A DNA stretch of 20,633 nucleotides from a virus (lineage: Duplodnaviria > Heunggongvirae > Uroviricota > Caudoviricetes). The translations under genes were made by a program, and so were the position numbers. This document shows positions 9,129 to 17,761 of this stretch, piece after piece; the stretch's first letter is position 1; each line of letters begins with the position of its first letter. The stretch is from IMG/VR virus record IMGVR_UViG_2606217106_000021. The stretch is one strand, 5' to 3'. Below the pieces are notes generated by a model, which did no database searches, had not been told where the DNA came from, and saw only the letters and a list, made by a program, of their open reading frames with translations.

Positions 9129-9331
9129 AACCTCACTCCCAGCGGACGACGGCGACGTCGGGTTGTCCCCAGTACCGACTCCGCATCATTGATCGCCCGG
9201 TTAAGCTCATCCAGAGAAGCCGCCGTATATTCAATTCTGCGACCATCTTTCTGGACAGACACCACCCGTTTACCGGTTAATAAATCAAGGCGCGCCTGAC
9301 GCAGCGCCTGTAGTTCAGCGACTGTAACCAT
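9125..9331 (-). CDS. W: Head-tail joining protein W (68 aa)
   Basis: [23 protein letters not shown] matches lambda W ([23 protein letters not shown]). Its stop overlaps the B start as ATGA. Confidence 0.8.
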
Positions 9332-11408
9332 TCACTCCTCCGGACAGCTTCGCTGCCAGTTCTTTAAGGGTTGGCCGGGTCGTCTCTTCTTCCCGGGATT
9401 TTGCCAGTACAGCCAGATCAAGCTGCCAGCGTTGCACGGACACACGTAATGCCGCATAGGCATACACCAGGCAGTCCAGCGCTTCGTTACGCCGCTTTTT
9501 GTTATCCCACAGCAGACGCATCTTTCCTTTTTCCCACTTCTCCACAAGCTCTTCCGCGACCAGTTGCTGCGCCTCTGTCTGCGAAAAAATCTCCGGATCA
9601 TCAGGAAAATGGATGGCATACGACGTGGCTTCATCCGCAGGAGTGGGATCGGCTTTCATACGGGCATAGAGAATTTCTTTTGCGGTGTCCGTCCCCACTT
9701 CACACAGATACACGCCCCGCTGATTGCGGGTTTTCGGCATGGTGATCACCGGCTTGCCATAGACAGATGCGCCTTTTACCGGCAGCACCCGGAAAACACC
9801 GTGTTTTTTTGACCTCTGATAGACAATTTCACCATCGATCCCCCCGGTGTCCCAGCAGACACGGGAAATGGTCATTTCGGTTCCGTCTGCATGGCAGTAT
9901 TTTTTGTTGATCGCCGCATCCACACGTAACAGCGTCTCTTCCTCATCGGGACGGCCCATAATGATGATTTTATCCACCAGAAAAGCTTCCTCTCCCGGTG
10001 CCCATCCCCAGACATACATCTCAAAACGGTTTCGCTGCGAGTCAATGCCCGCCGTCAGATAAACCACCCGGGCTGGCACCGCCGCCGTGTAATGCACGAC
10101 CTTATCCATCAGTACCTGGTGATCGAGTTTTTCGCCCACGGCCTCTTCAGAAGCCACATCGGATGCTTTCGCGATTTCAGTTTTCACAGCATCAAGATGT
10201 ACGGGTGATATATCAGGGTATTTACGCTGCAGTGTCTGAGGGACACGGACAAGGATCCCTGATATATTCTGTGCCACTCGCTGAAAGATGTAGGTAAATA
10301 ACTCCGTCTCGAGGACAAGGCCTTCCTCACGAGCATTTTTCAGCTCCTGTGCATCGGCCTGTGCCTTCGTCAGTCGGTAACGTTCGTAATCAATGGTGCC
10401 GGGCTGAAGGTCTGATTCGCTGGCAGCCCTCAAATCCTCGATCTCTTTACGGAGTTTTTCGTTTTCAATATCAGCTTCCCTCTGCGCATACCACTGAATG
10501 GCAGCAGTTGTATCAAAAACTGATTCAGTCCCTTTCCCTCCACCAGAAACTAGTGGTAACCCCTGACTCTGCCAGGCGGTGACTGATGCCGGACTTCCAC
10601 CGTGACACTGCGCCGCCAGCCCGGCAAGGTCAGCACGGAACTGCTGTACCATTGCAAGAAATGCTGCTGGCTGCTGGGCGTAACTGGCATTCGTCATATC
10701 GAATTCCCCCTGCATCCAGCATATCGCCAGCAAAACGTTTTTCGGGTTTTTCTGCAATGCTGCCTTCGTGCGGAAAAGCAGATCCTGATATAACGGCTTA
10801 CCCACTCCCCAGCGAGCCGAATCCTGACTGGCCCCCGTGGACTCGCTGAATGTCCCCTCCGTGCCCTGGGTGAATGCCGAACCACCACGACAGCATGGTA
10901 CCAGCAGGATCCCCGCGTTATTAGGGATATACGGAAGCAGTTTTTTGGCAATATGTAAGCCCTGTCCGACACAGCCGTACTGCCCTTTGCTCAGGTCAGC
11001 CCGGGGATGGTTAATCGTACTCATATCCTGAACATCATGCAGACAATGGTCAGCAGGAATGATGTCGTTAAATACGCATACTTCACCACCGGGAGTCACT
11101 GTGTTACGACGGGCCAGTTGCTTAATGCGCGGATGGGGCGCATCGTATGAATCCGGCAGCGGAAGCCCTTCACCGTAAGCCATGGCATTGGACTGCCCGG
11201 CCAGTACGATGACGTAGTACCAATCCGGCTCAGTTGCACCACTGACCACCACATCACCTTCTGCTGCAATCGCCTGCATCAGGGTATAAGGGGTTATGGC
11301 CACCGGACTACCAAACGGCTGCCAGCCCTCCTTCAGTTTTTGTGTCAGTCGTTTCGCAAGGTCTGACGGCGATACCGCCCTGACCACGTCATAGTGTTTA
11401 AATGCCAT
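9315..11408 (-). CDS. Chimeric ORF (697 aa): DUF1737-like/SASA-type esterase-like N-terminal region joined to the terminase large subunit (gpA) C-terminal domain
   Basis: Residues about 430-697 match lambda gpA's C-terminal region ([64 protein letters not shown]). Residues about 60-300 carry a [11 protein letters not shown] motif typical of SASA/SGNH sialate O-acetylesterases, which I associate with prophage nanS-p genes. A coiled-coil-like linker (about 310-420) matches neither. No terminase ATPase N-terminal region and no upstream nu1 are present. Confidence 0.7.
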
Positions 11409-12383: not shown

Positions 12384-12460
12384 TGGCGCGTTGTACTGGA
12401 TTCGAACCAGTGACCGATTGCTTAGAAGGCAATTGCTCTGTCCGGCTGAGCTAACAACGC
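12384..12460 (-). tRNA. argO: tRNA-Arg (anticodon UCU)
   Basis: Reverse complement folds as a cloverleaf: acceptor GCGTTGT/ACAACGC, T-loop GGTTCGAATCC, anticodon loop CTTCTAA, 3' GCCA. The symbol is by analogy with the ileZ-argN-argO cluster of Stx-type lambdoid phages and is not verified. Confidence 0.85.
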
Positions 12461-12473
12461 ATGATGCAGATAA

Positions 12474-12550
12474 TGGACCGCCATCGGGGACTTGAACCCC
12501 GCGCAGCCAGCTTCGAAGGCTGGCGCTCTTTCCTGATGAGCTAATGGCGG
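12474..12550 (-). tRNA. argN: tRNA-Arg (anticodon UCG)
   Basis: Reverse complement: acceptor CCGCCAT/ATGGCGG, T-arm CGGGG-TTCAAGT-CCCCG, anticodon loop CTTCGAA, 3' TCCA. Symbol by analogy only. Confidence 0.8.
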
Positions 12551-12557
12551 TATGTGA

Positions 12558-12633
12558 TGGTGGCCCTTGCTGGATTTGAACCAGCGACCTGGCGATTATG
12601 AGTCGCTCGCTCTCACCACTGAGCTAAAGGGCC
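12558..12633 (-). tRNA. ileZ: tRNA with CAU anticodon, Ile2 (lysidine) type
   Basis: Reverse complement GGCCCTTTAGCTCAGTGGTGAGAGCGAGCGACTCATAATCGCCAGGTCGCTGGTTCAAATCCAGCAAGGGCCACCA closely resembles E. coli ileX-type tRNA (anticodon loop CTCATAA). Symbol by analogy only. Confidence 0.8.
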
Positions 12634-12661: not shown

Positions 12662-13375
12662 TCAATAATCAAGCCCTTGCCTGGATACATATCTGTCTGG
12701 CGGGAAGCCATAATAGCGGTGAAATACAGAAATAAAGTAGGACCTGCTTGAATAACCGCATTTTTCTGCTATAGCCTGTCCATATCCATGCCGGGAACAT
12801 AACATATTTACAGCAACACGCATCCGCTCTTCCAGCAACAAGCGACTGAACATGCCCCCTTCATTTTTCAGTTTTGTCTTTAACAAACTCTCACTCATAT
12901 GCAACTGTAGAGCAATCGCACCAAGCGTCCAGCTTGCTGATATATCTGTCTGAATTATCGCCCTGACTTTGGCACTTATGCTGGATAAACATCCACTTAA
13001 AAACAATGACATCCGTTCATCTGTTTCAAACAGAGACAGGCAGGCCATCATAAGAAACATATCCGTGGCCTCTCCGGAAAATCCCTGGCTGGTAATTAAA
13101 GCCGCAGCCAACGCAGGATTGTTGGGTTCCAGCAACAGGTAAAGCGGAATGTCAGTCAGACGAGTCCTCGTCAGCTTATGCTGACTTTCCAGATATTGAC
13201 TTACGACGGATTCGCTTATATCGACAATTTTAACTTTGCCATAATGCATAAGGAAAAGCTCCCTGATGCATTTGGTGGCCAGAACAACTGAGCCTGGCTT
13301 AAGTGACAACGTATCCTTTTCAAGAAAAATATTAATTGGGGAGCAAACCATGATAACTGAACAGACAACAGCCAT
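12662..13375 (-). CDS. AraC/XylS-family transcriptional regulator, AppY-like (237 aa)
   Basis: C-terminal AraC-type HTH (AIAEKCGYSSRSYFISVFHRYYGFPP). The N-terminus MAVVCSVIMVC...KIVDI resembles AppY (MDYVCSVVFIC...RIVDI, recalled from memory). AT-rich; the 13376-13509 gap upstream could hold its own promoter. Confidence 0.85.
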   Translation of the reverse strand: MAVVCSVIMVCSPINIFLEKDTLSLKPGSVVLATKCIRELFLMHYGKVKIVDISESVVSQYLESQHKLTRTRLTDIPLYLLLEPNNPALAAALITSQGFSGEATDMFLMMACLSLFETDERMSLFLSGCLSSISAKVRAIIQTDISASWTLGAIALQLHMSESLLKTKLKNEGGMFSRLLLEERMRVAVNMLCSRHGYGQAIAEKCGYSSRSYFISVFHRYYGFPPDRYVSRQGLDY

Positions 13376-16064: not shown

Positions 16065-16892
16065 TCAATGAACGGTATCGAGCAGCTTTAACAGCTCAGG
16101 AAATCGGGATTCGAAGAAATGCGGCTGCGTCTCGCGCGGATTTGCAGGACTGGTGATGTTCTTGCCGAACATGCAGCCTTTCGCGGTCAGCGACCAGAAT
16201 TTTTTGATGTTGTTAATCGCGGTACGGCTGTATCGTTCGCGTTGTTCAACGATCCCCAGCTTCGCCATCTGGTGATATGCCTGATTAGCCGTCAGGCGGA
16301 TACCATACTGCTTCAGCAGTGCACTCAGCGACAGCGTAGGGCGGCTTGAACCATCTGGCGCATCAGCAGGTGCATCAATGGCATAGATCGGCATAAGTTC
16401 AGGAAGACCAGCTACCTTTGATAATTTCTGGTATGCACCAAGTTTCGAGGAGTTTGACAGATTTAGAGTCTTTGCTGCTGATTCAAGCAGAATGACCCCG
16501 GATTTAATTTTGTCGGATGTGGTTTCTTCTGGTGATGAATTATGAAGCGCATCAAAAGTACGTATCACTTTTAAGCTGAATGCCGGGCTGATCCACATTG
16601 CATATGCATAGACCAGCTCTTTACAGACATACGTCCCACCATTGCGCCCCTGAATGGTGATGACAGGAATACTACGGGAATCTCCCGTAGTTTCTTCTTC
16701 CAATAATTCCACAAGAGCCTTCGTTTCAGGACGACGCATAAACTCGTGAACTTCCAGCGAACGGGAGGAGCGATTCTCACCAGCGGCAAGAAGAGCAGCT
16801 TTCTGAAGGTCGTTAAGACAGTAGTTAGATTCGAAGTACTGACGCACAGAAACGCCATCAATTACAAGCAACTGATTCATTGGTTTCTCCAC
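16065..16892 (-). CDS. KilA-N domain protein (275 aa), possible antirepressor-type regulator
   Basis: The N-terminal region LLVIDGVSVRQYFE...ITIQGRNGGTYVCKELVYAYAMWISPAF fits the KilA-N signature (GGTW/Y...A.WISP.F). The C-terminal half is unrecognised. Confidence 0.75.
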   Translation of the reverse strand: MEKPMNQLLVIDGVSVRQYFESNYCLNDLQKAALLAAGENRSSRSLEVHEFMRRPETKALVELLEEETTGDSRSIPVITIQGRNGGTYVCKELVYAYAMWISPAFSLKVIRTFDALHNSSPEETTSDKIKSGVILLESAAKTLNLSNSSKLGAYQKLSKVAGLPELMPIYAIDAPADAPDGSSRPTLSLSALLKQYGIRLTANQAYHQMAKLGIVEQRERYSRTAINNIKKFWSLTAKGCMFGKNITSPANPRETQPHFFESRFPELLKLLDTVH

Positions 16893-16977
16893 AAATTTTT
16901 ATCCACGAGCGGGACTGCACTCCCTTTTCGTTGATGCAGGATGAACTTACTGCGATTTTTAATAGTTATCAAGGATA

Positions 16978-16997
16978 CACTGTTCATAAATACAGTA
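16978..16997. promoter_or_regulatory. LexA-box-like palindrome (CACTGTTCATAAATACAGTA) about 85 bp upstream of the KilA-N gene
   Basis: CTGT-N8-ACAG with an AT-rich centre, compared with the consensus TACTGTATATATATACAGTA. It lies in the only sizeable intergenic gap of the early operon (16893-17042). Confidence 0.5.
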
Positions 16998-17042
16998 TCT
17001 TTAACGAGGTAATACCCAAATTTAGGGTGTTGCTCAATTCCG

Positions 17043-17438
17043 TTACCGAGTTGCTAATTTGCAACTCGCTTTTTCGTACTTACTGATAGTGATCTCGACC
17101 TTCCCCTCCGGGATAACCGGTCCCCACTCCACCAGCATTCTTTTCACCTGACTGTCGTCTTCCCACACACCCGCGTGGGTCAGGGCGTCAAACAGCGCCT
17201 TGTTATAGTTGTCCAGATCGCGGATCCGGTTATCCGGAGGAAACAACACGATCTCCACTGAAGCAGGTGCCGACGTTGGTTTCGGCAGACGACGTAACTG
17301 CTCAACTATTGCTGCACACGCCGCGCTCTGGAATTTTCGCCCCGCCGCGCTTATCAGGCTCTTACCAGCAAACGCCCCTTTGTTGGGGTGTCGCCAGTAC
17401 GTGTTCACGCTGGGCGGAAAAGGCAGTATTAGCTTCAT
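17043..17438 (-). CDS. rusA: RusA-family Holliday junction resolvase (131 aa)
   Basis: LPFPPSVNTYWRH ... RIRDLDNYNKALFDALTHAGVWEDDSQV matches the RusA family pattern (LPWPPS.N.YYRH ... RRRDLDN..KA.FDALT.AG.W.DD.QV). Confidence 0.85.
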   Translation of the reverse strand: MKLILPFPPSVNTYWRHPNKGAFAGKSLISAAGRKFQSAACAAIVEQLRRLPKPTSAPASVEIVLFPPDNRIRDLDNYNKALFDALTHAGVWEDDSQVKRMLVEWGPVIPEGKVEITISKYEKASCKLATR

Positions 17439-17761
17439 ACTTTCAGGCCCCTCTCATGTAACCAGTGGGCTGCACGCAGCCTGGCGTTTGCCTCACCGGC
17501 AAGCAGGGCGCGGATAATCCCGACCGCCTCGCTGTCGTCGTCCTTCACCGCGGTATGAAGAGTGATACCCCGGGCCACGCCACGCTTTATCGTGATGACA
17601 CCTTTTTTCTCCAGTGCGCGAAGATGCTCCACCGCTGCATTCACCGAACGGTATCCCAGCATGGTTGCCACCTCCTGATTGGTTGGCGGGAAGCCACGTT
17701 CTTTCTGATAAGAAATCAGCATATCCAGCACCTGCTGCTGGCATTGAGTTAATGTCGTCAT
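17435..17761 (-). CDS. LexA N-terminal DNA-binding-domain homologue without the peptidase domain (108 aa)
   Basis: LTQCQQQVLDMLISYQKERGFPPTNQEVATMLGYRSVNAAVEHLRALEKKGVITIKRGVARGITL aligns with the LexA N-terminus ([65 protein letters not shown]). No Ser/Lys peptidase domain follows. ATGA overlap with rusA. Confidence 0.75.
   Translation of the reverse strand: MTTLTQCQQQVLDMLISYQKERGFPPTNQEVATMLGYRSVNAAVEHLRALEKKGVITIKRGVARGITLHTAVKDDDSEAVGIIRALLAGEANARLRAAHWLHERGLKV

Follow-up and report, generated by a model that had tools for sequence, protein, structure and literature searches.

How is a LexA-type DNA-binding domain put to use by a phage when the domain through which LexA is cleaved is no longer part of the protein? 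The question is raised by a small gene on the minus strand of a lambdoid prophage (17435..17761), located in a stretch of 20,633 nucleotides that was analysed as a whole and is referred to as the window. In the initial annotation its product was described as the N-terminal winged helix of LexA without the autocleaving domain, and it was connected with a LexA-box-like site some 500 bp away. The gene itself is not a discovery: it belongs to a phage family which is already catalogued, very common and annotated, and which is functionally uncharacterised; no published work on the enterobacterial protein or its function was found in the literature searched.

Domain identity and integrity of the gene

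The open reading frame begins with ATG and encodes 108 aa. It is annotated by PGAP as 'LexA family transcriptional regulator' (WP_000210152.1 in strain TOE17) and belongs to PHROG 362, the profile of which (106 positions) is matched from end to end (E 4.2e-59, aa 1-108 against profile 1-106/106) and carries the label 'transcriptional repressor', which is inferred only. In Pfam, aa 1-65 cover the complete LexA_DNA_bind profile (PF01726, positions 1-65/65) with an E-value of 2.9e-19 and 69 bits against a gathering cut-off of 23.7. The best PDB matches in phmmer searches were entries of E. coli LexA (1lea, 1jhh, 3jso; E about 1e-15 over aa 2-70), followed by other bacterial LexA entries and, as the weakest, Thermotoga LexA. 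Since E. coli LexA is the best PDB match, the gene was probably derived from a gammaproteobacterial lexA.

The peptidase domain was searched for by profile. No Pfam match to Peptidase_S24 (PF00717) was obtained for the 108-aa protein at E<=0.01, and the lexA equivalog model of NCBIfam (TIGR00498) reached 70.7 bits, below its curated cut-off of 110.95, with only profile positions 1-91 of 203 aligned. The Ser119/Lys156 dyad is absent and the chain ends at aa 108 with ...RGLKV. Together with the PF01726 match and the predicted fold (see below), these searches bear out the description as a LexA winged helix that lacks the autocleaving domain. As the catalytic domain is absent, the protein should be blind to RecA*.

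The reading frame is nevertheless complete and not that of a broken lexA, since its start overlaps the stop codon of the upstream dam gene (ATGA, 17758..17761, minus strand) and its stop overlaps the start codon of rusA (ATGA in the sequence at 17435..17438, minus strand). With both ends fixed in this manner no extension is possible, and as a length of 104-112 aa is also kept across genera, an interpretation as truncated pseudogene was excluded.

Predicted structure and DNA-contacting residues

Two AlphaFold2 models were obtained, with pLDDT values of 79.6 and 81.3. Codons 1-68 (17558..17761, minus strand) are predicted to form a winged helix-turn-helix with helices at 6-22, 28-35 and 40-52 and strands at 56-59 and 65-68, for which the top PDB match in Foldseek was 3jso_B from a LexA-DNA complex (rmsd 1.4 A, 68 columns, 50% identity). 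A disordered linker at 71-75 separates the winged helix from a family-specific helical hairpin at codons 75-103 (17453..17539, minus strand), which consists of helices 75-87 and 93-102, is predicted with a pLDDT of about 88 and contains the invariant A97. This helical tail of 35 aa replaces the C-terminal domain of LexA and is conserved in the family. It had been overlooked in the initial annotation, as had the fixed place beside rusA and the fact that the gene belongs to a phage family already named and found in ~41% of complete E. coli genomes. Comparison of the tail with PDB chains and Pfam families yielded no significant similarity, and Foldseek matches of the model were confined to the winged helix, with the tail uncovered. 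The hairpin may act as a dimerisation or partner-binding module.

DNA would be bound via helix 3, the recognition helix (codons 40-52; 17606..17644, minus strand), where the sequence from S39 onwards reads S39-V-N41-A42-A-V44-E45-H as against S-P-N-A-A-E-E-H in LexA. The DNA-contacting residues of LexA are S39, N41, A42, E44 and E45 (PMC3091678). Four of these five are present in the window protein (S39, N41, A42, E45), V stands in place of E44, and the wing R64-G65-I66 is present too. Because four of the five contact residues are retained, binding to LexA-type boxes is plausible, as far as can be judged from the sequence. In an alignment of 27 diverse family members S39, N41, R64, G65 and I66 are invariant; E44 is retained in none of the members aligned and always replaced, some clades have L, I, V, G or A at position 45, and the recognition-helix positions 42-45 differ between clades. 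A variable position 45 would be odd if the target were the invariant SOS box of the host. Members of a Klebsiella/Raoultella clade (P0263, P0268, P0293; 130 aa) possess a low-complexity N-terminal extension of 25 aa and display L-L at 44/45, which may be regarded as the strongest hint of a clade-specific DNA specificity.

Distribution and selection

At >=95% identity the gene was detected in 2233 of 5426 complete E. coli genomes (about 41%), and it is carried by phages SfV, SfII, mEp460, PhiR49_1 and Stx2a/Stx2c phages, among others. Profile searches revealed the family across Enterobacteriaceae, in Salmonella, Citrobacter, Cronobacter, Klebsiella, Raoultella, Kosakonia, Atlantibacter and Hafnia, with 40-57% identity and the same two-part architecture; length and architecture are kept across at least ten genera. 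The window protein fits the pattern of the family, which comprises a winged helix and a two-helix tail with invariant A97 in 104-130 aa. For 58 distinct sequences from one diverse clade, dN/dS was 0.20 in the winged helix and 0.19 in the tail, compared to 0.08 in the adjacent rusA. Values of about 0.2 in each part point to purifying selection, so that winged helix and tail are both functional. Between clades the LexA-like protein evolves faster than its neighbour, with identities of 44-50% versus 71-77% in RusA.

Some proteins of 140-350 aa (P0131, P0133, P0148, P0151, P0152, P0156, P0160 and others) contain two tandem LexA DNA-binding domains and may represent single-chain pseudo-dimers that dispense with a dimerisation domain. 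Database entries in which a LexA domain is fused to Dam (P0024, P0092, P0121, P0262) or to RusA (P0260) probably reflect frameshifts or faulty gene calling where the ATGA overlaps occur, not true fusions.

Gene neighbourhood and expression

All relevant genes of the prophage are encoded on the minus strand, in the order Rha, HTH_36/DnaD-like replication protein, PerC-like YfdN, dam, LexA-like gene, rusA, KilA-N, DUF968 and Q, followed beyond Q by tRNAs, an AraC-type regulator and then the morphogenesis genes. The LexA-like gene is thus a nin-region gene between the gene of a Dam-type N6-adenine methyltransferase (PF05869; 17758..18411, minus strand; the longest ORF extends to 18444, and the PGAP start is the equivalent of 18411) and that of the RusA Holliday-junction resolvase (17043..17438, minus strand). 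In the closest genome, E. coli TOE17 (99.9% identity over 8.5 kb), it is situated downstream of cI/cro in the early rightward operon, and the same order was found in phage PhiR49_1. A search for a sigma-70-like promoter upstream of the LexA-like gene on the minus strand found none; GGAG is placed 8 nt upstream of the ATG, and translation may be coupled to that of dam at the ATGA. Because the gene has no promoter of its own and overlaps with both neighbours, its expression would be tied to the early rightward operon.

RusA is a constant neighbour in nearly all relatives examined: in four clades, 79/79, 2/2, 77/77 and 38/56 loci have rusA as the next gene downstream, and in the last of these clades an insertion often separates the two genes. 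The upstream gene usually encodes a DNA methyltransferase, albeit of varying family (PF05869 Dam, D12, MT-A70-like, C5). When the sample was based on RusA, 73 of 80 close relatives carried the LexA-like gene directly upstream, and in the other seven dam abuts rusA precisely. On account of these seven relatives, the comparison of gene order marks the LexA-like gene as a dispensable cassette. Clean absence with dam abutting rusA was seen in loci L096, L101, L132, L134, L149 and L174 and in seven of L324-L402, and this presence/absence polymorphism would provide natural isogenic controls for studies of function.

Several features of the surrounding prophage are reported for completeness. An ORF of 697 aa (9315-11408, minus strand) combines DUF1737, a SASA sialate esterase (NanS-like), Nu1 and the C-terminal nuclease domain of GpA terminase; compared with TOE17, the lysis cassette and the ATPase part of the terminase are missing, and the prophage copy in the window appears defective. 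The tRNA cluster (12384-12633, minus strand) consists of Arg-tct, Arg-tcg and a tRNA with CAT anticodon, called Met by ARAGORN and Ile by PGAP, and is adjoined downstream of Q by the gene of a 237-aa AraC-family regulator (12662-13375, minus strand). This position downstream of Q is a typical cargo site of EHEC/EPEC-type prophages. PADLOC yielded no meaningful match to defence systems.

The LexA box near the gene

The LexA-box-like site which the initial annotation had pointed out is real: CTGTTCATAAATACAG at 16980-16995 is a perfect CTGT-N8-ACAG and the only one in the window. The LexA box TACTGTATTTATGAACAGTG (16978..16997, minus strand) agrees with the consensus in 16 of 20 positions and lies in an intergenic insert of 150 nt between rusA and KilA-N, 438 nt downstream of the LexA-like gene and 98 nt upstream of the KilA-N start codon. 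By count alone, its presence is not significant (0.29 expected in the window; at least one in 25 of 100 shuffles). The exact 20-mer is conserved in 98 viral contigs, and this conservation, together with the palindromic flanks and the intergenic position, makes the site credible as a LexA operator. Via this box the KilA-N domain gene (16065..16880, minus strand; 271 aa, with ATG at 16880 and a GGAG ribosome-binding site) is probably controlled by host LexA; its product possibly serves as an antirepressor or has a killer function.

A dedicated pairing of gene and box, in contrast, was rejected. Only 16 of 80 near-identical LexA-like genes are followed by the box-bearing insert and 64 are without box, and among 80 viral contigs with the exact 20-mer and enough upstream sequence, the LexA-like gene is in place in 73, at another position of the locus in one and missing from six. 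The initial annotation was right about the structure of the protein, but its tie to the nearby box is unsupported by comparative data. Its proposal that the protein might sit on SOS boxes and so modulate host SOS or the switch of the phage itself is a reasonable hypothesis, for which the evidence is mixed. Gene and box are best viewed as neighbours by descent and not as obligate partners, and the box is retained as a candidate target, not as a conserved partner.

In the window allele the KilA-N gene has gained the upstream region (16893-17042) that contains the near-consensus box. In most relatives, which are box-less, the N-terminus of the homologous KilA-N protein differs, and its gene begins immediately behind rusA, the two having no intergenic DNA between them. 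The allele with the upstream region is shared with Shigella phage SfIV and PhiR49_1, and its layout suggests an SOS-inducible variant that is independent of pR. The 3' end of rusA in the window is formed by the hairpin-forming gcgagttgcaaattagcaactcgg (17040-17075, minus strand), of which a near-copy, gcgagttgcagatttgcaactcgg, is located inside the KilA-N coding region of other alleles; RusA similarity to alleles with gcgagttgcagatttgcaactcgg in KilA-N ends at aa 125. The hairpin looks like the recombination joint at which the window allele was made.

Box density across clades

Loci of the E. coli clade contain 95 CTGT-N8-ACAG sites over 1.29 Mb; per 20 kb this amounts to about 1.5, versus about 0.3 expected. 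Near-consensus boxes among them precede KilA-N, lie within cI or sit at the start codon of a putative methylase. Because this enrichment is made up of three recurrent modules in closely related, linked DNA, it does not count as independent evidence. In a Cronobacter-type and a third clade (136 loci) canonical boxes occur at chance density (0.32-0.34 per 20 kb), and most phages of distant clades are without them; enrichment of LexA boxes as a property of the family was rejected, given chance density in both distant clades sampled in depth. Alternative spacings (CTGT-Nx-ACAG, inverted and direct, x = 0-20) were counted in the window and in three clades, where none was consistently enriched and the counts were dominated by conserved coding DNA. 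A search for a conserved alternative palindrome across clades likewise found none.

Two of the recurrent boxes lie within coding sequences. One of them, the near-perfect TACTGTATGTAAAAACAGTA (17/20; TOE17, locus L186, 19074-19093), is placed inside the cI ORF, in the part coding for the linker that joins the XRE HTH to the S24 domain (...KSNTVCKNSI...), and some 23 of loci L002-L081 also carry a cI-internal box, at -3.0 to -5.6 kb. Such a box might act as a roadblock or as an SOS-controlled promoter within the gene. The other, TACTGTAAATATAAACAGTG (L019, 13920-13939), overlaps codons 3-9 of a 350-aa ORF downstream of the nin region, and some 24 of loci L002-L081 have a box of this type, at +3.6 to +6.1 kb. 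With its DPPY motif, the ORF looks like a putative DNA methyltransferase.

Proposed role and alternative explanations

The reading preferred here, to which a probability of roughly 0.4 is given, is that the LexA-like protein is an SOS-insensitive regulator that binds LexA-type boxes (CTGT palindromes). According to this proposal, an ancestral lexA would have kept its winged helix, lost the S24 protease/dimerisation domain and gained the two-helix tail. The gene would be expressed only on derepression of the early rightward operon, by infection or induction, and its time of expression would coincide with the destruction of host LexA. In the E. coli clade the protein would then bind CTGT-type palindromes as an SOS-insensitive repressor, pairing on DNA through wing contacts, as the N-domains of LexA do, and/or through the helical tail. 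Because LexA N-domains pair on the operator, where an extensive interface stabilises the dimer about 1000-fold (PMC3159453), a standalone domain could in principle fill a canonical box. Candidate targets would be the LexA boxes of this phage group and the SOS operators of the host. Against occupancy of SOS boxes stand the consistent loss of E44, the variable position 45, the chance density of boxes in distant clades and the diverged specificity of gp6, the LexA homologue of phage GIL01.

The same observations agree with a second explanation, in which the protein is a phage-specific regulator of diverged specificity that recognises an operator of its own and represses or activates a phage promoter, with little effect on host SOS. 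GIL01 gp6 sets a precedent for such a regulator (PMC6182141), and the fast evolution compared with RusA, the differences at positions 42-45, the replacement of E44 in every member aligned and the scarcity of canonical boxes in distant clades are all in its favour. However, neither a conserved alternative palindrome nor an alternative CTGT spacing emerged across clades, the window protein retains four of the five LexA contact residues compared with one of five in gp6, and the phages already have Q for late control. We consider an operator of this kind a possible but somewhat less probable target than LexA-type boxes.

A more far-reaching idea is that lambdoid phages, Stx2 phages among them, produce a RecA-blind LexA mimic at an early stage of lytic growth, which re-occupies SOS boxes once host LexA has been cleaved, thereby silencing the host SOS regulon as well as the LexA-controlled antirepressor or killer genes of co-resident prophages, and confining expression of the phage's own genes with a LexA box, such as KilA-N, to a pulse. 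This is regarded as rather unlikely, but would, if true, mean that inter-prophage competition and host take-over proceed through the SOS operator code. 

The gene is carried by phages that convert Shigella serotype and by Stx2-converting phages, which rely on SOS for their induction. Should the protein occupy LexA boxes, as in the preferred reading, an induced phage could silence SOS and the LexA-gated antirepressors of rival prophages, with effects on toxin-phage induction, antibiotic-triggered mutagenesis and the dynamics of polylysogens.

A role as accessory factor in DNA transactions, in which the protein targets or modulates RusA or the methylase during recombination or replication and the tail contacts the partner, is improbable. 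It would suit the constancy of rusA as downstream neighbour in nearly all relatives examined, the start/stop overlaps, and an upstream gene that nearly always encodes a DNA methyltransferase while the family changes. Yet RusA does not need the LexA-like protein, since dam abuts rusA, with no LexA-like gene in between, in about 9% of phages that are otherwise identical, and the linkage within a conserved operon is equally explained by descent. LexA-type winged helices, moreover, are sequence-specific operator binders.

Very improbable is a function as decoy or substrate, with the stretch LLAGE (aa 86-90) engaging the active site of host LexA or RecA* owing to its resemblance to VAAGE of LexA (Ala84-Gly85). 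HMMER does align aa 2-90 to LexA 2-86, the TIGR00498 alignment covers positions 1-91, and A-G-E is also found in the Salmonella and Kosakonia clades; but Citrobacter members have A-N at this place, the Klebsiella clade has A-E-E and the Cronobacter clade E-R-E, and the motif is located inside a confidently predicted helix, not in an extended loop. As a functional scissile bond A88-G89 was rejected, being unconserved across the family and helical in the models, and LLAGE is most simply seen as a relic of the point at which the ancestral lexA was truncated. The possibility that a host lexA was captured and left only a functionless remnant, as might be suspected of a truncated host-gene copy in a prophage that itself appears defective, is effectively refuted by dN/dS of about 0.2 in both domains, by the length and architecture conserved in at least ten genera and by the presence of the gene in the functional phages SfV, SfII, mEp460 and PhiR49_1 and in Stx2 phages.

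Comparison with known systems

With the N-domain of E. coli LexA (1LEA, 3JSO) the window protein shares the winged-helix fold, about 50% identity, S39, N41, A42, E45 and the R-G-I wing; it differs in the missing S24 domain, in V for E44, in the hairpin tail and in a score below the TIGR00498 cut-off. E. coli LexA is autoregulated, whereas the LexA-like protein is phage-borne and expected to be made from a lytic operon. It resembles the N-terminal cleavage fragment of LexA (residues 1-84) in that the DNA-binding domain is uncoupled from RecA*-triggered inactivation. The natural fragment binds DNA with reduced affinity and, once cleaved off, is broken down by ClpXP and Lon (PMC3159453); the phage protein has another C-terminus (...RGLKV) and carries an extra helical module. 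LexA(Ind-) mutants that resist cleavage, among them G85D and S119A (PDB 1JHF, 1JHH), keep the C-terminal dimerisation domain, which the phage protein does not have. By analogy, fragment and Ind- mutants may be taken as models of how an 'SOS-blind' protein would function when it occupies SOS boxes.

In the antirepressor loci GfoA/GfhA of the lambdoid prophages Gifsy-1/3, an accessory gene that lies outside the immunity region is preceded by a LexA box and is linked to SOS in this way (PMC3121763). The KilA-N gene of the window shows the same layout of the LexA box, but the Gifsy loci involve host LexA only, with no phage LexA-like protein, and KilA-N is unrelated to GfoA-type antirepressors.

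Many standalone LexA_DNA_bind proteins of 65-150 aa and the same fold are also known from viruses, among them Mycobacterium phage Wildcat, Tectiviridae and uncultured Caudovirales. The only phage LexA-domain protein that has been studied is gp6 of the tectivirus GIL01, a truncated LexA homologue of 66 aa, which activates the late promoter P3, where it binds GaCACAnnTGTGaC, a non-LexA palindrome (PMC6182141). Both gp6 and the window protein match PF01726, both are standalone LexA DNA-binding domains of temperate phages, and both would be early gene products that act once host LexA has been removed. In contrast to the window protein, gp6 has no tail and agrees with LexA at one of five contact positions (S-H-K-T-A-H-R) instead of four, and its critical recognition-helix Lys38 aligns with N41, which is N as in LexA. 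Moreover, gp6 drives a late promoter, whereas the window phage uses Q for late control, and no gp6-like palindrome was identified at the late-promoter -35 in the window phage. BLASTP produced no alignment between the two proteins. Since pairwise similarity is not detectable and contact residues and tail differ, the sequences indicate that GIL01 and the lambdoid phages captured the same host domain independently. If the enterobacterial protein recognises an operator of its own, it would join GIL01 gp6 as a second, independent instance in which a phage has turned the host SOS repressor's DNA-binding domain into a private regulator.
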